From positions 29,326,001-29,390,000 of the forward strand of contig OZ116702.1 in the NCBI GenBank assembly GCA_964199315.1: DNA of 64,000 nucleotides, written 5' to 3'. Of the stretch, positions 1 to 49,900 are shown in pieces; position 1 is the first letter of the stretch, and the number at the start of each line of letters is the position of its first letter. Source of the stretch: Orbicella franksi. Its lineage: Eukaryota. The position numbers and the translations under genes were made by a program. Under the pieces are notes generated by a model, which was not told the origin of the DNA, did no database searches, and saw only the letters and a list, made by a program, of their open reading frames with translations.

Positions 1-680
1 TCATTCTGTCCTATGATCAAGTCCGTGGCCGTGGGTATGACTTCCGTGGGAAATTCTTTCCTCAAGTGGGGTCCCAAGACGTAACCCGGTTGTCCGTTTT
101 GCAATGTTCCCATCTTGACCCATTTCATCTTCTTGGCCAATTCGATGCCGATGGACATTTGTGGGAAGACGCGTTTACCGTTGATCAGGAGGCTGAGGCA
201 CGTTCTCGAGTTGTCGAGGACGCATTCTCCATTCTCGGCCCGATGCATGACCGTGTACAGCAATTCGGTGGGATCGTCGGGTTTGCTCTTTTTCTTGTAC
301 ATGGTCACGTCGTCATCCGTTCTAGATCTCAACCTATGCATGTATCGATCTCGTATCGCGTTCAGTAACTCGGTACCGGTCCTCGGCGTGAATTCCAAAT
401 CGCCCTCTCTCGTCACTCCAGAGACCTGCGTGTATATGTTTCGATCCGCGTTCACCATATCGATCCACCAGATTTCAAACAGAAGAGAATCTTTCAAGTC
501 CATCTTACGCACCGCGGACGGAAACGAGAGGTCACTGATACCCACTTTCCAACCCGACTCTCTCAACTGCAACGGGTTCAGCAGACGATTCTTGAAACTG
601 TTGGCCTTGTTGTCCGGGAACTCGCTCGTACTGGCATTGCTCATCAGTTGCACGTAAAAGTCGTCGGCAGACTCATTCAT
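1..680 (-). CDS. Polinton penton/minor capsid protein paralogue 2 (partial, runs off the window; absent from the ORF track)
   Basis: Manual translation from the ATG at 680 gives MNESADDFYVQLMSNASTSEFPDNKANSFKNRLLNPLQLRESGWKVGISDLSFP, the penton N-terminal motif. DNA at 581-660 is nearly identical to 1681-1759. Confidence 0.8.
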   Translation of the reverse strand, partial: MNESADDFYVQLMSNASTSEFPDNKANSFKNRLLNPLQLRESGWKVGISDLSFPSAVRKMDLKDSLLFEIWWIDMVNADRNIYTQVSGVTREGDLEFTPRTGTELLNAIRDRYMHRLRSRTDDDVTMYKKKSKPDDPTELLYTVMHRAENGECVLDNSRTCLSLLINGKRVFPQMSIGIELAKKMKWVKMGTLQNGQPGYVLGPHLRKEFPTEVIPTATDLIIGQN

Positions 681-1767
681 ACTTAAAGTGTAATGTCACA
701 GACGTCACGCCCGATTCAAAGTCCACCAATCTTCCGTCGTTCTCGGCCAATTGCACCTCCACTATATCCAAAACGTTGCTGCGCACAGGTTTATATTGAA
801 TCTGATTCGGTTCGTACGTCGTCTTGATCGGGTCGTGGGGGACTTCTCTCAAGAGATCCGTCACTCGATTCCCCGTGATGGTACTACGACCTACATTCGA
901 ATACAGGTACATGGGACTGCGAGGCAGAGGTAGGTCCGGATGAACGACGACTCCACGATGATAGGTCTTGGCGTATTCCTCGTCCAGGTAACTGAAGCGC
1001 CAGTTGCAATAGGGACTGAGCTGTAACGTCCCGCTGCTGTCCAAATTCCAAAAGTTATGAGATCGATTGTCGCTATGGTCGGTCCAGTCTTTCTTGAAAT
1101 CAGACGGAACGGTGTCGTTGGGAAAGATCTTGATCATATTCATGTTCAAGTGAACGGAGTAATACGATTCCTCGTTAATCAAACCCAACTTCTTGACCAG
1201 TTTAGGACCAAAAAACACTCTGGGACGTTGTCTGTCTCCGGACTCGCTGAGGAACGTGTCGGTGTTGTCGATAATCAAATCGTTCCCCTCCCATCGGAAC
1301 ACGGGGTAGTATTTTTTCCCGTCCGGCGCTCGTAGACTTTCGTTGGCGCGATCCATGTAATGATACAGGCGTTCATGAAAACGATTGATGAGGTATTGCA
1401 TGAGAGATTTACCGCTCGTCACTTTGTGTCGGTCACGGTTCAGTTCCTTCCCGTAGACGTCAAATGGTACGCGGTATCGCCCAGGACTCCACGTAGACCC
1501 GTCGGATTGCAAGATGAACGTTTCAATGGTCCACTCAAGACAGAACACATTATCGTCATCGTCAAAGTCGTGCGTTTGAGTGACTGGTACTTGATGCGGT
1601 CGTGACGGAGGAATCGGGTAAGAAACGCTCGCCAATCCCACTTTCCATTCCTTGTCGGATTCAAACAGGAGCGGATACGGCAGACGGTTCTTGAAACTGT
1701 TGGCCTTGTTGTCCGTGAACTCGCTCGTGCTGGCATTGCTCAACAACTGCATGTAAAAGTCTTTCAT
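673..1767 (-). CDS. Polinton penton/minor capsid protein paralogue 1 (364 aa)
   Basis: N-terminal FYMQLLSNAS..EF.DNKANSFKNRLP..L...W.VGLASVSYP and C-terminal MYLYSN..G...DLLREV...EP..IQYKPV...VEVQL..DGRLVDF..GVTSVTLHFK match the Polinton minor capsid pattern. Confidence 0.85.
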   Translation of the reverse strand: MKDFYMQLLSNASTSEFTDNKANSFKNRLPYPLLFESDKEWKVGLASVSYPIPPSRPHQVPVTQTHDFDDDDNVFCLEWTIETFILQSDGSTWSPGRYRVPFDVYGKELNRDRHKVTSGKSLMQYLINRFHERLYHYMDRANESLRAPDGKKYYPVFRWEGNDLIIDNTDTFLSESGDRQRPRVFFGPKLVKKLGLINEESYYSVHLNMNMIKIFPNDTVPSDFKKDWTDHSDNRSHNFWNLDSSGTLQLSPYCNWRFSYLDEEYAKTYHRGVVVHPDLPLPRSPMYLYSNVGRSTITGNRVTDLLREVPHDPIKTTYEPNQIQYKPVRSNVLDIVEVQLAENDGRLVDFESGVTSVTLHFKYE

Positions 1768-2858
1768 TTTTTTGTCTTTGGCTTTTTGGTCACGTACAAG
1801 CCTTTTTTATCCACCCAACTGTCGTACTTGACTGGCCAACCTTTCCAACGCACCAAGACTTTATCCCCTTTTCGTTTGACGATCTTGTCGATGCGGAACA
1901 GATCGTCGTCTTTCACGGACACCTTTTGCAAATCTTGCGCGTAAAACGTGCCTTCGACCGACGTGCCGTCCCATTCTTCCACCTTGTACGTGGTGACCTT
2001 CCCAGGACGCACTCGTCGTATCACAAACACCTCTTCGGTCCAACCGGGTAAATACCCTTTCTTGAACTGTCGGAACTACTTGTTCAGTCTCACACGATCC
2101 CCGACTTTCAGTGAAGGTCGTCTCGATTTCTTTTCCTTTTTACCGTAAAGAGTCTCCCACACGTCCTCGCTATTGCCTAAAGTCACTTGATCGGGAGCCA
2201 TCTTGATACTGCGATGATACGATCGATTGTACCCTCGGACCAGATCTTGTAACACGGGCACAAACTTCATCGTATTCTTCACGGTGAAGTATCGGTACAA
2301 ACGTTCCTTCAGGGTCCGATTGAACCGTTCCACCACACTGGATTTCGTATCCCCACGAGTCGAAAAATGATGAATGCCTTTCTGCTTCATCAAATCCTGA
2401 AACGTCTTGTTGTAGAATTCCTTCCCGTCGTCCGTCTGAAGATTGATGGGTTTTCTACCTCCTTTCAAGATCTTAGCCATGGCTTCCGTCACCGCTTTAC
2501 CCGTCTTGCTCTTCAAGGGTTGGACCCAGGCGTGCTTGGAAAACACGTCCACCACCGTCAAGAGATAACGATACCCTCGATTGTACCTGGCGATATTGAT
2601 CCCCTCGATCAGGTCGGCCGTCCACTGCTCGTCGATTCCGAACACCACCACCGGGACCGTGGGAAACCGACGACGTCCGGGTTTGTGCAACGAGTACCCC
2701 AAATCCCGTTGCAGGACCTCGCGCGCACGTCGTACCGAGATCTTATTGGCCTTGGCGAACCGCGTCAGACCACCCAGACTACCGGGTCTAGAAGGATCCC
2801 GATACCGTCCCAGTAACGTCCCGGTCGAAAGCGGCTTCTTCTTTTGACCTTTCTTCAT
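1764..2858 (-). pseudogene. Polinton retroviral-like integrase (rve + C-terminal chromodomain) interrupted by one in-frame TAG
   Basis: DDE motifs WTADL, LQTDDGKEF and VVERFNRTLK are intact. ORFs 2076..2891 and 1764..2030 share a frame and join as KVGDRVRLNK*FRQFKKGYLPGWTEEVF (TAG at 2076-2078). Chromodomain FRIDKIVKRKGDKVLVRWKGWPVKYDSWV. Likely start is the ATG at 2858. Confidence 0.9.
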
Positions 2859-3169
2859 AATCGATAAAGTTTGTAAACGCACTGTCTCCACAACTCGAAA
2901 CGCTGCTCACGTACCTCGAGATACTTCTTAAATGAATCGGGTTGCTGTTTCAACCACAAGATATAAACGACAAAACGCATCACGTTGGGTTCGACGTCGG
3001 TATAGTCAAACACCTCCAAGGGCGAATCACTGAAATGGTCAGGGATGGGTTCACCCTTACCGTATCGCTCGTAGACTCTAGCGCACTTGGAACACAAGGT
3101 TGTCCAACACCATCGATCGGCCATGGTCTCACACACTCTCGAGATCAACCAACTCAAGGCATGAGACAT
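2855..3169 (-). CDS. Polinton hypothetical protein (104 aa)
   Basis: ATG at 3169 with a TATA-like TATAAGA at ~3203-3209 and Inr-like TCATT upstream; the stop overlaps the integrase ATG (ATGA). Confidence 0.65.
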   Translation of the reverse strand: MSHALSWLISRVCETMADRWCWTTLCSKCARVYERYGKGEPIPDHFSDSPLEVFDYTDVEPNVMRFVVYILWLKQQPDSFKKYLEVREQRFELWRQCVYKLYRL

Positions 3170-4614: not shown

Positions 4615-5022
4615 ATGGATTCACACGTCGAACCCGACAGGAAAAAGAGAAAATCGTCCAAAAAGAAGGAGGCGCGTAAGAAACTGAAACTGCTCCTACC
4701 CAAGAGAGTGGAAGGAGAAGTAGGAGGTAAACTACAATCCACATTAGATAGATGGTTATTCAAAAAACCTCGTGCCAGACTACGTTTCAACCAACGCGTC
4801 CTCTTCAAAGAGATCACACCGGACTCTGTCAGTTGGACCACCGTCCCTCTCAAAGGCTTCTCGCAGCCATGGAGCGTCTTTTCGATCAAACGTCAGGAAG
4901 TCAAAAGCCAAATGAAAAGTAACCATTACAAGCGAAGGCAAAGACTGACCCCCAAAAACGTGCGAAAAACCACCCACATCCTAGAAACCATGCTACGGGA
5001 AAACACCTTGTTGGGATACTAA
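4615..5022 (+). CDS. Lys/Arg-rich protein with NLS-like N-terminus; probably supplies the first exon of the zf-GRF gene
   Basis: Good Kozak context (gtcATGg) and KKRK/KKKEARKK motifs. It contains two phase-1 GT donors (4727 GAG|GTAAAC, 4919 AAA|GTAACC) compatible with the acceptor at 5041-5042. Confidence 0.6.
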   Translation: MDSHVEPDRKKRKSSKKKEARKKLKLLLPKRVEGEVGGKLQSTLDRWLFKKPRARLRFNQRVLFKEITPDSVSWTTVPLKGFSQPWSVFSIKRQEVKSQMKSNHYKRRQRLTPKNVRKTTHILETMLRENTLLGY

Positions 5023-5042
5023 CTCAATCTCTATCTTCACAG

Positions 5043-5644
5043 ACTCAAAGCTAGCCGCCATTCAAGGCGGATGCCTGACCGTGATAAGAGAATCACCTCC
5101 TCAAACCATTCAAGTCCTGGAACCCATAGGACTCGACAAATTCAAGAAAGACGAACTCGTAGAATTACCACCTGAAGTGGACGACCAAGGAGAATTCACC
5201 GAAGTACAAGTGTTGCAGGAATTCGACCCCGATCAGTTCCTGAACCAACTGAAAACCCAAGATCACACCTGCCCGCGTTGCATGGTACCCATGGAATTTG
5301 GAAGAGTGAAAACCCCCGAAGGTGGTACCTGGTGGGAGTATTACCGATGTCCCTCTTCCAGATTCTACACCAAGTGTTATGTGACCTGTGGCGCCAAAGA
5401 GGTGAGCGCCTACCTGAGACGCGTCGAAGAACAGACCCACCCCTGCTACAGGAACATCGACCCAGCTCGTTTCCGATGTCTATGCAACAAGTCCCTGGTC
5501 TTAGCCACCTCCCACTCCCAGTCCAACCCGGACAGGCTCTATCTCAAGTGTCCCAAGCGTAACTGCAAGTTCTTCCAATGGATCGACGAATACCCACGTG
5601 GGATCGCCCAAGACATACTGATTCATGGACAGAACCCAAACTAA
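5043..5644 (+). CDS. Zinc ribbon + GRF zinc-finger protein (likely second exon)
   Basis: C-terminal CLCNKSLVLATSHSQSNPDRLYLKCPKRNCKFFQWID is zf-GRF, with an upstream CPRC...YYRCP...KC...C ribbon. No in-frame ATG before 5282. A pyrimidine tract + CAG acceptor ends at 5042. Confidence 0.75.
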
Positions 5645-5648
5645 GAAA

Positions 5649-5720
5649 GGCAGGGTGGCGCAGTGGAAGCGCGTTGGGCTCACAACCCAGAGGTCCGAGG
5701 ATCGAAACCTCGCCCCGCCC
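5649..5720 (+). tRNA. Initiator-tRNA-Met-derived tRNA gene with CAC anticodon
   Basis: Cloverleaf GGCAGGG TG GCGC-AGTGGAA-GCGC G TTGGG-CTCACAA-CCCAG AGGTC CGAGG-ATCGAAA-CCTCG CCCCGCC C, with A/B boxes and a T7 terminator at 5722-5728. Initiator hallmarks A54/A60 and three G-C anticodon-stem pairs are present. Anticodon at 5681-5683. Confidence 0.85.
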
Positions 5721-5791
5721 ATTTTTTTCCAAAAACACACAGGCACATATTTTTGTAAAAAACACACTCTGATATTTTATTTTTTCATATT

Positions 5792-6343
5792 TTACACGTT
5801 GGGTAATCTATCTTTCGCGTCGATCATCGACCGCATTGTTACTTGATTACATTTGTTAAATGTGCTGTAATAAAAATTGATTACATTGACATAACGCTTC
5901 ATCGTGTTCTTTTGTCTCTGAGTCCACGTGGACTGAAAAGGCTCGAAACCGTAGCACAACATAAGTCTGTGAAACGTGATCCGGTCCACGGGCGGCTTCA
6001 CTTTCACGTCCCATACAAGGTTCTTGCGAATAGCATGGATCGCGTTGAATAAGGTTCTGCCGAAACACCTCTCGATGCTCCGGTACCGGTGCTGACTTCG
6101 GGTCCAGTTCTCACGCTGCTCGTCCATAAAGAACAACACCTGGTGTAACATCACCTCGAGCTGGCTCGAATCCCGAAACCTTGTCAACCACCGACGGCCC
6201 GCCAACAAATCCCGGATGGGAAAATTCATGCTCTCGTAAAACCGGGTCCAGGCCTCGTCCATTCGATCGATTGCCTCCTCGTAAGTGACCTCGGGCTTTC
6301 TCGGTCTGAAATCGTTCGGAATATATCTCTCCCTCAAGGCCAT
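5792..6343 (-). CDS. Polinton hypothetical protein (~183 aa)
   Basis: ATG at 6343 in strong Kozak context (accATGg), TATA variant and Inr upstream, AATAAA downstream at ~5776-5781. Confidence 0.7.
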   Translation of the reverse strand: MALRERYIPNDFRPRKPEVTYEEAIDRMDEAWTRFYESMNFPIRDLLAGRRWLTRFRDSSQLEVMLHQVLFFMDEQRENWTRSQHRYRSIERCFGRTLFNAIHAIRKNLVWDVKVKPPVDRITFHRLMLCYGFEPFQSTWTQRQKNTMKRYVNVINFYYSTFNKCNQVTMRSMIDAKDRLPNV

Positions 6344-6347
6344 GGTA

Positions 6348-6590
6348 GCGCTCAATACAAGTTAAAAACTCAGAGTGAAGAGCGGACGATGCTGATTCGC
6401 TTTATGCAGATCCGTCCAGCCAATCACAGATCGAGACGAAGTCACGTGTTACCACAGACCCAGGGGATAGGGGGGTATCCCCCTACCACGCCCACTCACG
6501 GTAGGAGACTGGACACCATTATACCGGGTGTATAAAACGAGCGAGTCGGATCGTTCACTTTCACTCTGAGTTTTTAACTTGTATGAGCGC
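6348..6590. promoter_or_regulatory. Bidirectional promoter flanked by a 31/32-bp inverted repeat containing both initiators
   Basis: TTCACTCTGAGTTTTTAACTTGTA(T)TGAGCGC at 6348-6379 (minus) and 6560-6590 (plus). TATAAAA at 6531 and CATAAA at 6406-6401 each lie ~30-32 nt from the Inr. CCAAT at ~6420, CACGTG at 6443. Confidence 0.7.
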
Positions 6591-6655
6591 CTATTACAGA
6601 AGACTGTGGGTGTTGCTGTGGGTGTTGCTGTGGCTTCTCAAAGTACCAAGTGAGT

Positions 6656-6901
6656 ATGGAAGTATTAGAGCATTGTCATTCCGAGTTGACCGTCATGAGA
6701 AAGCGAGTGCGAGAGCGGATGAAGGATGGAGAGACCCCCTTGTACAGGGAATTTTTAGATATCGTCGGGGTGGCCCTGGACCAACTAGATCTTTTGTTCC
6801 TGGAAGAGAGGCTGGGGGTCGCTGACGAGGACGATATTAACGATTTAGTCATTCATGTAGACTGGGCCCACAACACTTACCATCGACTATTTCAATTTTA
6901 G
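6656..6901 (+). CDS. Polinton hypothetical protein (~81 aa)
   Basis: ATG at 6656 in strong context (agtATGg), downstream of the TATA/Inr; the track start at 6650 is GTG. Confidence 0.6.
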   Translation: MEVLEHCHSELTVMRKRVRERMKDGETPLYREFLDIVGVALDQLDLLFLEERLGVADEDDINDLVIHVDWAHNTYHRLFQF

Positions 6902-6903
6902 AC

Positions 6904-7269
6904 ATGGAACCCGCCTCTTGTTATGTATGCAAACAAACCAGACCATGCTGCCGCCTACCGCTCACAGAGTTGGGTAAACGTGGGACCCACGACAAATTCA
7001 TACGCACACTCTCGGGACCACTGAGAGAAGCCTGGGGACTAGGGTGCGTCTGGGAAACCTGCTGCAAGGCCATCTATGGCATGTATCCCAATTATGAGAC
7101 CTCCCGTTACGAAGCCGTCTTCCTGGGGAGCCATTATGATGAAGCCCTGTCACGTGTCAATCATGTGAAATCTTTTCTTTATTATGATCATGAAGAAGAC
7201 AAAAAGGGCGCCGGTCATCAGGACTGTGCACATGTCCCAACCTGTAATAACAAGTGGAATGTCAAATAA
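6904..7269 (+). CDS. Cys-rich hypothetical protein (121 aa)
   Basis: gacATGg start preceded by an acceptor-like TTTTAG; CxxC/CC motifs; AATAAA overlaps the stop. Confidence 0.65.
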   Translation: MEPASCYVCKQTRPCCRLPLTELGKRGTHDKFIRTLSGPLREAWGLGCVWETCCKAIYGMYPNYETSRYEAVFLGSHYDEALSRVNHVKSFLYYDHEEDKKGAGHQDCAHVPTCNNKWNVK

Positions 7270-7302
7270 AAAGTTGTTTTTTGTTCTATTTTTTCAGACT
7301 CC

Positions 7303-7527
7303 ATGTCACGATTTCCTAAACCCCAATGTATATGGTGTAAGGAAGGATACACTCCCAATCACAGTATCCAAGACTACTTCCTGACACCGTGTTGCGACCA
7401 ATTCTTTCACGGAACTTGTAAAGTCCTCCACACCTGGTGGTTGAAACCCTCCCAAAGACTCTGCCCTCATTGTAAAACCGTGAATTTCGGACTACCCACC
7501 GATGACATCCCCAAAACCAAGTCCTAA
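7303..7527 (+). CDS. Minimal RING-variant/PHD-like (C4HC3) zinc-finger protein (74 aa)
   Basis: CIWC-x17-PCCDQFFHGTC-x14-CPHC ligand spacing (approximate); preceded by a pyrimidine tract + CAG at 7295-7297. Confidence 0.65.
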   Translation: MSRFPKPQCIWCKEGYTPNHSIQDYFLTPCCDQFFHGTCKVLHTWWLKPSQRLCPHCKTVNFGLPTDDIPKTKS

Positions 7528-7933
7528 AGAGGTAAGCGCTTCGATGGTCTAATGGTTAAGACGTTGAGTTGTGGCCTCAAAGACCCAGGTTCGATTCCTG
7601 GTCGGGGCATTAAAAATTCTTTTTTATTTTCCATAGAGACCCCTGGCCTGTAAAATCTGTTTGGACGAACCCCACCCCGACGAAGATGTCATGCTCCTTT
7701 TCCTCAACCAACATTTTCCCCACCCATGGTACATGAGAAGAGACCTCTCCAAGGTCTGGCTCTTCGGACGCGTTTTCGAATCCTCCTCAGGCTTTCACGG
7801 AGAATTTCTCACACCCCAAACCATGATGCTAGCCCTCGTGCATCTGGGAACTAATGACGTGCAAGCACTCAAGATGATGCAAAAAATCACACAACAAACC
7901 ATGTACATTCTCTCGTTAAAGGATCTTTATTAG
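7502..7933 (+). CDS. Two-exon Polinton gene (7502-7531 + 7637-7933, ~108 aa) whose intron hosts tRNA-His
   Basis: Donor GAG|GTAAGC at 7532 and acceptor TTTTTTATTTTCCATAG ending at 7636. Splicing joins ATG 7502 in frame: MTSPKPSPKE|RPLACKICLDEPHPDED... Confidence 0.6.
7538..7609 (+). tRNA. tRNA-His (GUG)
   Basis: Cloverleaf GCTTCGA TG GTCT-AATGGTTA-AGAC G TTGAG-TTGTGGC-CTCAA AGAC CCAGG-TTCGATT-CCTGG TCGGGGC A. His-type loop TTGTGGC, A73, A/B boxes, T6 terminator at 7620-7625. Confidence 0.9.
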
Positions 7934-8439: not shown

Positions 8440-8655
8440 ATCATTGGTTCTATTTGATCAATCACGTGACAACCTCGATTTCATGTTGCCTTATTTGGGC
8501 ATGCGCGAGCTGTGACGTCACGGGCGCCATGTTTTGCTACCAAAGGGGCCATCTTGGATTTGAAAATTTAAGAGAATGTATGGGAAAAACTTGGTCACGT
8601 GGTACAATCCCTGGCTCCTGATTGGTTACTGACCCTATCAGCGCTATTCACTACT
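8440..8655 (-). promoter_or_regulatory. Probable terminal inverted repeat region with clustered transcription-factor motifs
   Basis: CCAAT (8443, 8621), CACGTG (8463, 8596), CArG CCTTATTTGG (8489-8498), GCATGCGC (8499), CRE TGACGTCA (8513), YY1-like GCCATNTT (8526, 8548), ending in ACTACT. Confidence 0.55.
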
Positions 8656-11132: not shown

Positions 11133-11355
11133 GCGAATATATGCAATTAAGAAATAGAAAACATGTTCTTCGTGTTTCTATCGAGTGATAGAAACACTCG
11201 TGAAAGTTTGGGAGAACTCGAAAGAGCTGTTGAAACACTCGCCTATCGGCTCGTGTTCCCACAGCATTTCTGGTTCTACCAAACTTGCACTCGCGTTTCT
11301 ATAACTCGTTAGAAACACGGAACATGTTTTCTATTTCTTAATTGCATATATTCGC
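11133..11355. mobile_element. MITE with ~35-bp terminal inverted repeats
   Basis: GCGAATATATGCAATTAAGAAATAGAAAACATGTT ... AACATGTTTTCTATTTCTTAATTGCATATATTCGC. Confidence 0.75.
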
Positions 11356-11839: not shown

Positions 11840-12742
11840 TTATTAAAAAAAATAAAAAAAATAAATTAAAAAAAAAAATAATCATAATAATAATAAATAA
11901 TAATAATAATAATAAATAAATGTAAAGAAAAAATAAATTATTAATTTAAAGTTATAATAAAACCTAGAATCTGAACTCTGGACTCTTGCGGCTTGACAAT
12001 CAGACGGTTGCAGTTGAGTCACGATATGTGGTCACGCAATACCTTACTTTTAAATTATAAAAAAATATACAGAAAACAAGAAAAAACCTTAACAAGAAAC
12101 ACCCTCACATTCCCTGTACTTTGTTCTTTGTTTCTGAGTAAAAGGTGTGTCACACAAGAGATTTGAAGCTTTGTTAAAGAAGTTATGAATTTGGACGAGA
12201 AGGCTTAGTGATTGGAATTCGGAACATTGGCTTTTTTTAAAAAAGGTTTAATTGTTCTTTCTTTGCATGATATGTTCCGAATTCCAATCACTATGCCTTC
12301 TCGTCCAAATTCATAACTTCTTTAACAAAGCTTCAAATCTCTTGTGTGGCACACCCTTTACTCAGAAACAAAGAACAAAGTACAGGGAATGTGAGGGTGT
12401 TTCTTGTTAAGGTTTTTTCTTGTTTTCTGTATATTTTTTATAATTTAAAAGTAAGGTATTGCGTGACCACATATCGCGACTCAACTGCAACCGTCTGATT
12501 GTCAAGCCGCAAGAGTCCAGAGTTCAGATTCTAGGTTTTATTATAACTTTAAATTAATANNNNNNNNNNNNNNNNNNNNNNNNNNNNNNNNNNNNNNNNN
12601 NNNNNNNNNNNNNNNNNNNNNNNNNNNNNNNNNNNNNNNNNNNNNNNNNNNNNNNNNNNNNNNNNNNNNNNNNNNNNNNNNNNNNNNNNNNNNNNNNNNN
12701 NNNNNNATTCCGAATTCCGAATTCCGGGTTTTCCAACCTACC
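11789..12742. mobile_element. Foldback (fully palindromic) non-autonomous element containing an assembly gap
   Basis: Termini GGTAGGTTGGAAAACC-(GGAATTC)n and the reverse complement. Inner arms 11939-12227 and 12272-12559 are near-perfect inverted copies around a 44-nt spacer. Confidence 0.75.
12560..12706. other. Assembly gap (147 N)
   Basis: Run of N. Confidence 1.
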
Positions 12743-46900: not shown

Positions 46901-49900
46901 CGGCGAAGTCGCGAGCTGCGAGAAGCTTGATCCGTGAAATATTTCAGCCCAGTCACTTAGAGTAGGCAACAACAAAAAATTAAGAAGACCTTTTTCATAA
47001 CTTACATCGTTCGCAGTTGACTCCTTTAAACTCATTCACACAGACGCAGAGGTACTTGTTATTGCCCATGTTATAGCAAGTTCCTCTGTTCTTGCAAGGG
47101 TTTGGGACACAAATATCCAACGCTGAATTGAAAACAAACAACAGTTCAGCTAACACACTTAGGAACAAAATATATAGGCATGCTAAGTGTGCTGAGGAAT
47201 ATGTTGCTGGAATCATTCTATACGGACGAGATGCTACTTTTTTGGGTAGTAAATTAGCCTCTTTATTTTCGGTCAATATGCCCTAAACAGGCATTTTACG
47301 ATTCACGTTTCCCATGAATGTGATACTGAGAATTTATTCCAAGAACAATTTTGCTGTTGAAAATTTAATCCGCGGCTCCCGAGATGGAGCAATCAAAATC
47401 ATATTTCTAGATTTCATTACATAATCGAAACACACAGAAGGCTGGTGAAGGAAACTATCAATCTGGGATAAAATGAAATAAATAGATCACTTTATTTAAG
47501 TGTCAGAGTATTTTAGCACTGTTGTACTAATTGTGGACACTGTAAATAAGCAAACAAATATTACAAATAGAACAGAAATTTGTTAAAAATCCGAACTGGT
47601 AGGAGGCTGACCAGCTGGCTATTAACAAAGCGTGGAAGAGTTGAATTCGGGACCACCGAAGACAAATCCATCTAGTGGCAGGGAGGAGGATTTGAACCCG
47701 GGACCTCCAGATTACAAGTCCAGCGCCCTAACCACTAGGCCACGCTGCCTCCATAAATAACCTCCTGTTGCACTACCTTTGAAAGAAATCTATTGTACGT
47801 ATTTTGTAAAGGGAATATTTTTTTGAATACTTACACTTTTCACAGTTGTCACCAGTAAACTTGTCTGGACATTGACAGCTGTAGCCATTATCGGAAGCTT
47901 TACACGTTCCTCCATTCAAACAAGGCTTGGCATCACATGGGTTGATTTCTAGGTTTAAAAAAGATAAATCAGAAAACATAATGTAACAATTAAAAGGCAT
48001 CAGAAGAACAAATAAACAGCAGCAGTAAGTCATAAAAAATATTACGTTAGTCTTTATATATATTGTGCATTTTCTTAATGTGTAATCAATATAATTTACT
48101 TATTTCATCAAAAGTAAGTTACATGTATTACCAATTTGTGTTTCACAGTTATCGCCTGTAAACTGGTTGGGACACTGGCATTCGTATCCTTCCTGTTGTT
48201 CAATGCATGTGCCTCCATTTTTACACGGCTCACCTGCACATGGCTCTAAAGGCTTTGCAGCTGGTCAGGAAACACAAGCAAATTAAACTCGTATTTATTA
48301 GGACTGATATTAACGCGAGATTTCTATAACGGTATTTAAAATCCCTTACCTGAAACGCACGCCAGCTATAATTGTTGTATTTTTGAAAAAAATTCATTGT
48401 TTAATGAAAATAAGAACAAACTCTTTGTTGAAGAAGCGAATCAATGAGCCATGTCTTTACTTTAATGTGTCATCGCTCTTGTGGAAATCATGCATTGCAC
48501 ACACAACCTAAAGGGTTTTTCACTAATCAGCAGATAATCTGTGTGCATTGTGATCGGTTTTAAAATTCGCGGCAATTGTGAACTTTTTTACAACTGAGTG
48601 GTTTTCTTGATTGGGTATTGTGTTAGTCTTGGCAACCAATGTTATTCACTCCTGGACCTAAAACTATAGCTCACTTACTCACGAAGCGCCAATTTCGAAC
48701 GCAACTCCAACCAGCAGTTTTCAAACTCAAAAAATACTAGTTATAGTTCATAAATTTTCAAAATTAAAACGGATTTTGTTAAAGGAAAGTGGTATCTTGC
48801 TTTTGCCATGCGTACGTTCCTCGAAACAATGTAAAATGTTCTTAAAATCACTTTCAAAAATAGTCTCCATACTAAAATATCCTGTTTTTGCTGTGTTTTC
48901 AAGTTCAAAACAATAGTCCTTCCACTTGCTTAATGCTCTGCATTTTAGGCTTAAATTGTAGGTACATCATTCTTCTTCAAAAAGCCGTACGTAGGTTTTA
49001 AGATTTTGACTTCTATAAAGCAGCGAAGCAAGTTTTATCAACGCTACTTGACCAATTTGAGTCCTTTCTTCTCTTATTGTGAGCGCTCTTGCATTCAAAT
49101 TTGCCGCTTCGCGGATTATGAATAATTAGTGATGTCCACGCATTCTGCCCTGTGTGTTGGTTGCGCTGATTCCCATAATGAACTGTAGGCTCTTAGCCAA
49201 CGAGAAGACAGATATTGACTACAATGTATAATAATAGAACTTACCTTTCTCACAAGTAAATCTCGCTTTAGTTGCACACTTCTCCATTACCCATTGGTGT
49301 TGGCGAGCCCGCTGTATATGAACACAGCGTGCCTTTTCGCTCTCACGAGGTTGGTTTGAAGCCCAGTTAGTGTATTTGCTTTCTTCTCCGCTGACCCACT
49401 TAAACACTTTTTCGTCGTCTTTGTTATTCAATCCGCACCAACTTCCCTTGTCCCCCAGAATACCGGAGAGAAATTTCTGCTCATTTGCATCATTCACTGT
49501 TACCAAATTGGCTTGTTTCTTTTCACAGATTTCCTGAGCTTTTTCCCAGCTTGTTGTAGCCTTCTTCCTACCTTCGCGAAAGTAACAGTTTCCACCATAA
49601 AAAGACCAGCCATAGTCACAGCGCTTTTCTGTAAGACACAAACAAATATTATTATAGATATAAATATTGTAATATATTATATTTAACAATTATTCGACGA
49701 GCGCGCGTGGGATATGATCCCACGGGATCACATATCCAACAAGCGCGAGTGGAATAATTGTTTTATTATGGAATATTATTATTATACTATAGCTAAAATA
49801 TGTGTACCGGTAAATTGAAATGGAATTGGATAAAACTGATTTTAAAATTAAATCAGTTATTAAGCTTGGTTGATGCTTTAAAAAATTAATTTGTCGATTA

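Follow-up and report, generated by a model that had tools for sequence, protein, structure and literature searches.

Why should a virus-like element integrated in a coral genome carry tRNA genes of its own? The question is raised by a 64,000-nt stretch of Orbicella franksi DNA (assembly GCA_964199315.1, contig OZ116702.1, positions 29,326,001 to 29,390,000; hereafter, the window), in which two tRNA genes, one for tRNAHis(GUG) and one derived from initiator tRNAMet, lie inside a Polinton. A preliminary description of this DNA had read the pair as possible decoys in the manner of adenovirus VA RNAs. Our comparisons instead point to the tRNAHis as the central feature: it belongs to a lineage specific to these elements, appears to be under purifying selection, and may serve as a tRNA.

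Two tRNA genes lie within a Polinton

The window maps to G000:C5:29326001-29390000, and 30 kb of upstream sequence (negative positions) was added to delimit the element. The Polinton spans positions -17441 to 8655 (26,097 bp) and ends in terminal inverted repeats (TIRs) of 168 bp that are 98.8% identical (left, -17441..-17274; right, 8488..8655), flanked by a 6-bp target-site duplication (TSD). It encodes a protein-primed DNA polymerase (PolB; PF03175, E 2.8e-40), a retroviral-type integrase with a chromodomain (INT; 1764..2906, minus strand; PF00665, E 2.1e-12, and PF00385), an adenain-type protease (PF00770, E 9.5e-5) and an A32-like packaging ATPase (PF04665, E 1.6e-4, below the cut-off). 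With its long TIRs and 6-bp TSD, the element is a Polinton/Maverick of the adintovirus-like type. In-frame stops split both the integrase and, near its 3' end, PolB, indicating that the window copy is decaying.

Within these boundaries, ARAGORN and Rfam model RF00005 agree on two complete tRNA genes on the plus strand: tRNAHis(GUG) at 7538..7609 (64.9 bits, E 7.7e-12) and the initiator-Met-derived gene at 5649..5720 (56.4 bits, E 1.7e-9). Both are followed by T runs resembling RNA polymerase III (Pol III) terminators, T6 at 7620..7625 and T7 at 5722..5728, respectively, as first described. Minimum-free-energy folds were not used, because they failed to reproduce the cloverleaf for host and element tRNA genes alike.

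The tRNAHis gene belongs to an element-specific lineage

The tRNAHis gene has the sequence of a eukaryotic tRNAHis, with a cloverleaf, a GUG anticodon, A73 and no encoded G-1. GUG and A73, named as the charging determinants of tRNAHis in the available text of PMC10275265, are both kept, and the acceptor stem carries conserved tandem wobble pairs (U3·G70 and U4·G69). A run of five or more T residues lies within 30 nt behind the gene in 40/40 genomic copies and in 55 of 59 complete metagenomic copies, compared with 5.9% of random positions in the element. Polinton-type His genes agree with one another at 59-70 of 72 positions and with host genes at 55-60; the window gene matches the host at 58/72, with an identical anticodon loop. 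We rejected recent capture from the host, given identities to host genes of only 58/72 (His) and 62/72 (Met). The Polinton tRNAHis is cargo of the element, distinct from the host's tRNAHis, whose genes form an array on C2.

A search motif with no constraint on the anticodon matched 79 Polinton-type sites in the assembly, 77 of which read GUG, against 29-42 host-type matches. In metagenome contigs, at least 80 loci carry the motif, and all 80 are adjoined by homologues of Polinton genes; scans of viral contigs found nothing. The PolB tree has three deep clades, and the His lineage is found in two of them, which share about 45% identity; the survey behind it was partial, scoring 74 of 391 candidates, placing 20 on the tree and examining six spans for tRNAs, one of the six containing just a fragment. 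One element (G000:C6:26563711-26563986) joins a clade-I PolB, about 62-67% identical to that of the window, to a protease/ATPase region that shares 84% identity with clade III; comparisons of this kind indicate that modules recombine between deep clades, and sharing of the His gene may therefore reflect exchange rather than descent.

One metagenomic family-B element also has a tRNAAla(UGC)-like gene, placed tail-to-tail with its His gene (L177:4153-4226).

Selection acts on the fold and anticodon of tRNAHis

We collected copies by exon 2 of the flanking transcription unit alone (30 loci, from 40 scored of 85 candidates), and the His gene was present in 30/30. Its nucleotide diversity (pi) in these copies is 0.016. 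In the flanking open reading frames (ORFs), four-fold sites reach 0.089 and 0.207, and the tail of the enclosing intron reaches 0.247; variation in the gene is thus 5-15 times lower than at synonymous or intron sites, and about as low as at the second codon positions of exon 2 (0.019). The gene has no indels, while the intron around it varies from 103 to 110 nt. An alignment of 19 Polinton and 2 host rows (21 in all) has 98.6% of its stem cells paired; both sides have changed in six pairs, and in four of these the changes fall among Polinton rows. We take these compensatory changes as support and not as a probability, because part of the 5' side was set by the search motif and kinship among rows inflates such counts.

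Could the genes nevertheless be neutral passengers, captured from the host long ago and carried from lineage to lineage by recombination, with recent sweeps accounting for their low diversity? The recombinant clade-I element just described would fit such a history, as would the scatter of the Met-like gene on the tree of its neighbour zf-GRF, a degenerate tRNAAsp-like relic in clade III and the existence of subfamilies that lack tRNAs. Against it stand the compensatory changes within Polinton rows, the absence of indels despite the varying intron, and the unrelated flanks of the His gene, found in at least six contexts. We regard this reading as the least probable of the alternatives, and for His it is largely refuted. 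The comparisons thus favour purifying selection on the fold and anticodon of the His gene across very different Polinton lineages. The preliminary description had argued for selection on structure rather than passive capture, a view borne out by the low pi, the paired changes, the distance from host genes and the Polinton flanks; the genes are neither confined to one copy, nor decaying neutrally, nor near-identical to host loci.

At least 20 clade-III copies have the Asp-like relic, tRNAAsp(GUC)-like in sequence, in the interval from protease to ATPase (L286:4925-4994). Its B box is broken, it is no better conserved than spacers, and 1/20 was called at the default ARAGORN threshold. The idea of a set of queuosine-bearing tRNAs, which this sequence had raised, was dropped on these grounds. 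A search for host tRNAAsp returned only these degenerate clade-III sequences.

The tRNAHis gene sits in a predicted intron

The tRNAHis gene begins 6 nt behind a GT donor-like site (7532) and is followed by an AG (7635-7636), which together delimit a predicted phase-0 GT-AG intron (7532..7636, plus strand, 105 nt) whose polypyrimidine tract overlaps the T6 run. The donor GT is present in 29/30 copies of the exon-2 set and in 40/40 of a second set. A predicted first exon of ten codons (7502..7531, plus strand, ATG at 7502) overlaps the end of a Cys-rich ORF in another frame; the ATG lies ten codons ahead of the donor in 27/30 copies, and an ATG is found in 38/40. The predicted second exon (7637..7933, plus strand) encodes 98 aa, has no match in Pfam or the Atlas, and in 30/30 copies remains an open frame of 98-100 aa. 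In a second family, with a PolB 43% identical, the His gene directly follows a GTGAGT donor; of 16 such loci, 4 extend far enough to reveal an acceptor, which lies 103-105 nt on. In these two families tRNAHis is thus predicted to sit in a conserved GT-AG intron. In a third family, a TATA box precedes the His gene by 26-34 nt, with PolB just downstream. The intronic position given in the preliminary description is thus supported by the conservation of donor, exons and length, but no spliced GT-AG junction of the predicted introns was found in four RNA runs mapped to the region, all long-RNA libraries.

Such positions might also suggest that the genes act in cis, as a TFIIIC/Pol III chromatin boundary, a transcription block, or an RNase P/Z cut site for the element's Pol II transcripts. 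The Met-like and His genes begin 4 and 10 nt, respectively, behind same-strand stop codons, the Met-like gene sits between convergent genes, and the TATA-proximal placement in the third family points the same way. A boundary needs only the A and B boxes, yet anticodon-stem pairing and GUG are kept; the ends of zf-GRF do not change with the presence of the Met-like gene, and positions differ among families. Moreover, a sister subfamily retains the intron in a shorter form that contains a relic of the tRNA, and the intron and both exons persist once the tRNA has been deleted. We therefore consider a role in cis unlikely.

The initiator-Met-derived gene is an optional cassette

The second tRNA gene directly follows, as first described, a zf-GRF gene (PF06839, E 1.2e-6). 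It retains initiator traits, namely an anticodon stem with three G:C pairs, A54/A60 in the T loop and C3:G70, and differs from the host initiator in G1:C72, G6:C67, an A4·C69 mismatch, U33, G57 and C73. A sister copy matches the host gene at 62/72 positions; its ten differences comprise two double changes that preserve pairs 1:72 and 6:67, one change from G·U to G-C, one from G-C to a wobble, the A4·C69 mismatch and three unpaired sites (33, 57 and 73). A1:U72 is absent from the family of the window (family A), where G1:C72 occurs in 17/17 Met-like sequences. The anticodon is CAC in the window copy and CAU in 16/16 sister copies. The iMet-like identity first assigned thus stands on the stem, T-loop and C3:G70 features, but not on the window anticodon or on pair 1:72. 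A GUG-reading initiator tRNA was rejected as a feature of the family, CAC being private to the window copy (1/17), whose PolB and INT carry stops.

A run of at least five T residues lies 1 nt behind the gene in 13/16 copies and 6-16 nt behind it in the other three. Among the first 40 listed family-A places, all of them His-bearing, the Met-like gene is present in 16 and the His gene stands without it in 24; its distance from the stop codon of zf-GRF takes one of two values, and it is dispersed over the zf-GRF tree, with zf-GRF ending in the same way whether or not it is there. It is a separate, optional cassette. Its diversity (0.0165, compared with 0.117 at four-fold sites) could reflect selection or a recent sweep.

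The available text of PMC3950347 reports that the A1:U72 pair enhances binding of eIF2-GTP, and that of PMC10275265 reports that a G1-G2 start with an unstable acceptor stem triggers CCACCA tagging. The Met-like gene has such a start and stem, and a short-lived RNA is therefore predicted. From G1:C72, C73 and the acceptor mismatch, we predict that the Met-like RNA would also be a poor partner of eIF2.

A tandem family, known from five metagenome loci, has a His gene followed by a host-like initiator tRNA, which keeps A1:U72 in 4/5 loci. Both Met lineages carry U33, a pyrimidine at 73 and an acceptor mismatch. Host initiator genes, which form an array together with tRNASer on C12 (L091, G000:C12:21.18-21.24 Mb), carry A57 in the T loop, as does the tandem-family tRNA but not that of the window family. 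In the assembly, 30/80 initiator-type matches are Polinton copies.

The preliminary description had proposed that the iMet-like and His tRNAs could act together as VA-RNA-like decoys or supplements of the eIF2/GCN2 axis, with PKR as the kinase that adenovirus VA RNAs antagonise. Co-occurrence in two families and the retained ribosomal P-site features of the Met-like gene (the three G:C pairs and A54/A60) lend this some support. The pair recurs in the tandem family but is not a fixed module, since His occurs without Met as noted and three loci have Met with no His gene within 10 kb. A1:U72 is lost in the window family, the His gene keeps its charging determinants, and neither gene has a long double-stranded stem. 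An Rfam search of the window gave no match at E<=1 to the VA RNA covariance model (RF00102). Uncharged tRNA activates GCN2 rather than blocking it, and the HisRS-like domain of GCN2 is not specific for His. The decoy proposal is weakened by these observations and now appears improbable, more so than a role in cis.

A chargeable tRNAHis may replenish the host pool

That the anticodon arm and the determinants for Thg1 and HisRS are conserved argues for function as an RNA read as tRNAHis, beyond a promoter or a cut site. We propose, with a probability of about 0.5, that the element-specific tRNAHis is chargeable and supplements or replenishes the host pool during the element's active phase. Pol III would transcribe the gene from its internal A and B boxes, Thg1 would add G-1 and HisRS would charge the product; host enzymes would in this way mature the tRNA, and the His-tRNA pool would be topped up during expression of the element's own genes, with the benefit falling in active replication.

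Of the pressures that can be named, the likeliest would be depletion of tRNAHis by an RNase L-like nuclease. A candidate is an intronless gene of 1287 aa with ankyrin, kinase and KEN domains in an RNase L-like order (L344:2294-6157); a second KEN match, with a stop, lies 20 kb away. Codon demand from a His-rich PolB would be a weaker pressure: His makes up 4.0-5.2% of the PolB segment in the two clades with the His lineage and 3.3% in clade III, which is weakly suggestive of demand as a driver of the cargo.

Several observations weigh against the proposed supply of tRNAHis. The host's own complement of His genes is already at least 29 (29 among the 100 matches listed). Across whole elements, His content is 2.5-3.9%, a range that does not divide carriers from close non-carriers; subfamilies lacking the tRNA have the same His content as carriers, and codon demand therefore fails to tell the two apart. 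The host-identical anticodon loop would confer no resistance to an anticodon-loop nuclease, so that the gene could only add mass, and in PMC5648034 loss of tRNAHis did not account for the early arrest of translation. The best solved relatives of the KEN protein are IRE1, its RNase L identity resting on domain order. The tandem U·G pairs could mean altered charging. Two subfamilies with perfect TIRs do without the gene, one lacking the tRNA region and the other keeping a relic, so the His gene is dispensable and the intron independent of it. Raw-read coverage of the region was 0 reads in one RNA run and 98, on both strands, in another, from long-RNA libraries that do not sample mature tRNA. Assembled contigs of two runs cover the region, more deeply over the His bins in one, although contig depth shows neither strand, level nor splicing.

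The deviations of the acceptor stems leave room for RNAs that are not used in translation at all: Pol III units yielding uncharged tRNA-like RNAs, tRNA fragments or a decoy substrate for a nuclease that cuts tRNAHis. Murine gammaherpesvirus 68 offers a parallel in its TMERs, Pol III units with a tRNA fold. Conserved deviations occur in both genes (the tandem U·G in His; the mismatch and pyrimidine 73 in Met), a G1-G2 start with an unstable stem triggers tagging (PMC10275265, available text), and a host-identical anticodon loop would suit a decoy substrate. On the other side, the terminators lie 1-16 nt downstream, leaving no room for a 3' hairpin, and His retains all known charging determinants. 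This reading ranks first among the alternatives, while remaining unlikely.

The supply of tRNAHis can be carried into a bolder account, in which an old virus-specific tRNAHis lineage, expressed from within spliceosomal introns, would counter an RNase L-like, tRNAHis-depleting antiviral arm in cnidarians, paired with re-engineered initiator tRNAs (U33, pyrimidine 73 and, in one lineage, G1:C72) that would alter the start of translation, with integrated copies outnumbering the host's His genes. As a whole, we hold this account to be doubtful.

Accessory transcription units and neighbouring features

The tRNA genes are embedded among small predicted transcription units. Upstream lies a basic ORF of 135 aa (4615..5022, plus strand) with an ATG in 40/40 copies and a candidate phase-1 donor at 4676, which is a strict GTAAGA in only 22/40. 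The zf-GRF unit (5017..5644, plus strand) has a TACTAAC branch point (5017-5023; 38/40 copies) and an acceptor AG (5041-5042; YAG in 39/40) ahead of its exon, and its stop codon precedes the Met-like gene. An ORF of 183 aa (5792..6343, minus strand) converges with zf-GRF across that gene.

A TATA-like box, an ATG at 6583, a hydrophobic leader exon of 22 codons and a phase-1 GT donor at 6650 follow (6531..6651, plus strand), with ATG and GT in 28/28 copies holding the region. Two ORFs lie downstream on the plus strand, each behind a phase-1 acceptor: one of 121 aa (6902..7269; YAG in 27/28 copies holding it) and a Cys/His-rich one (7298..7527; CAG in 39/40). The latter was first described as RING-like, which its Cys/His spacing supports, but it has no Pfam match. 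The leader donor is in phase with both acceptors, which suggests that across 6531-7527 one membrane anchor is spliced to several small ORFs by predicted alternative splicing, in adenovirus style.

A 461-aa ORF adjoining the protease is kept in all clades and has no Pfam match; the label of putative major capsid protein is inferred from its position and size. Beside it stand three tandem paralogous ORFs of about 350-370 aa (window 1-1806, L033; one to three per copy), probably minor capsid proteins. In or beside clade-III Polinton spans, histone 3' UTR stem-loops score above the gathering threshold (RF00032; L285:4165-4210, L282:3466-3511, L288:3277-3322 and L288:3578-3623), making histone-type 3' processing or histone cargo possible. 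Outside the element, a weak tRNAThr(UGU)-like sequence whose acceptor stem is broken (47675-47749, minus strand) is probably a tRNA-derived repeat, and long inverted repeats in host DNA at 12185-12314 and 11133-11355 (a mir-3202 match below threshold; a palindrome of 226 bp) are likely non-autonomous transposons.

Relation to known systems and significance

Transfer RNA genes have been described in Polinton-like viruses (PLVs) of protists: the available text of PMC12220804 gives 558 tRNAs in about 8300 genomes, with His making up 8/10 ARAGORN hits in cryptophyte PLVs, and proposes codon compensation or the countering of tRNA depletion as their role. As in coral Polintons, tRNAs are there cargo of integrating dsDNA elements of about 20 kb, and His is the commonest in cryptophyte PLVs. 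The present elements differ in being animal Polintons with PolB and INT, whose element-specific lineage was compared with host genes and appears selected across deep clades; their tRNAHis is nested in predicted spliceosomal introns and outnumbers the host His genes in the assembly. Virophages, among which Met(CAU) is frequent in one clade (PMC6905037, available text), and MELD viruses, in which tRNA genes are flagged (PMC8502044, available text), are likewise small dsDNA relatives with tRNAs. They differ in having protist hosts or non-PolB replicases, and the available parts of these reports contain no analysis of initiator against elongator identity or of selection.

Adenovirus VA RNAs, like the coral genes, are RNAs with a Pol III type-2 promoter in an element of the PRD1-adenovirus lineage, but the coral genes are 72-nt cloverleaves with anticodons and not PKR-binding stems of about 160 nt. 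The Met-like gene shares its G1-G2 start and acceptor-stem mismatch with the MEN-beta tRNA-like RNA and CCACCA-tagged tRNAs (PMC10275265, available text). Unlike the MEN-beta RNA, it keeps the anticodon arm, A and B boxes and terminator, and its tagging is predicted only. The preliminary description did not recall tRNA genes as a described part of Polintons; our literature searches found no report for animal Polintons, subscription journals and Repbase lying mostly outside them, but such genes are in print for protist PLVs.

These findings bear on the biology of both the elements and their hosts. Coral tRNA gene sets are inflated by Polinton copies, of both His and initiator type. In animals, endogenous DNA viruses can have tRNA genes that long-term selection maintains, something associated with phages, giant viruses and protist PLVs. 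The results also support the view that these Polintons pass, or until recently passed, through an active virus-like phase with leader splicing in adenovirus style. Since tRNAHis is the tRNA attacked by RNase L in mammals, an arms race at the level of tRNA in early-branching animals becomes directly testable.

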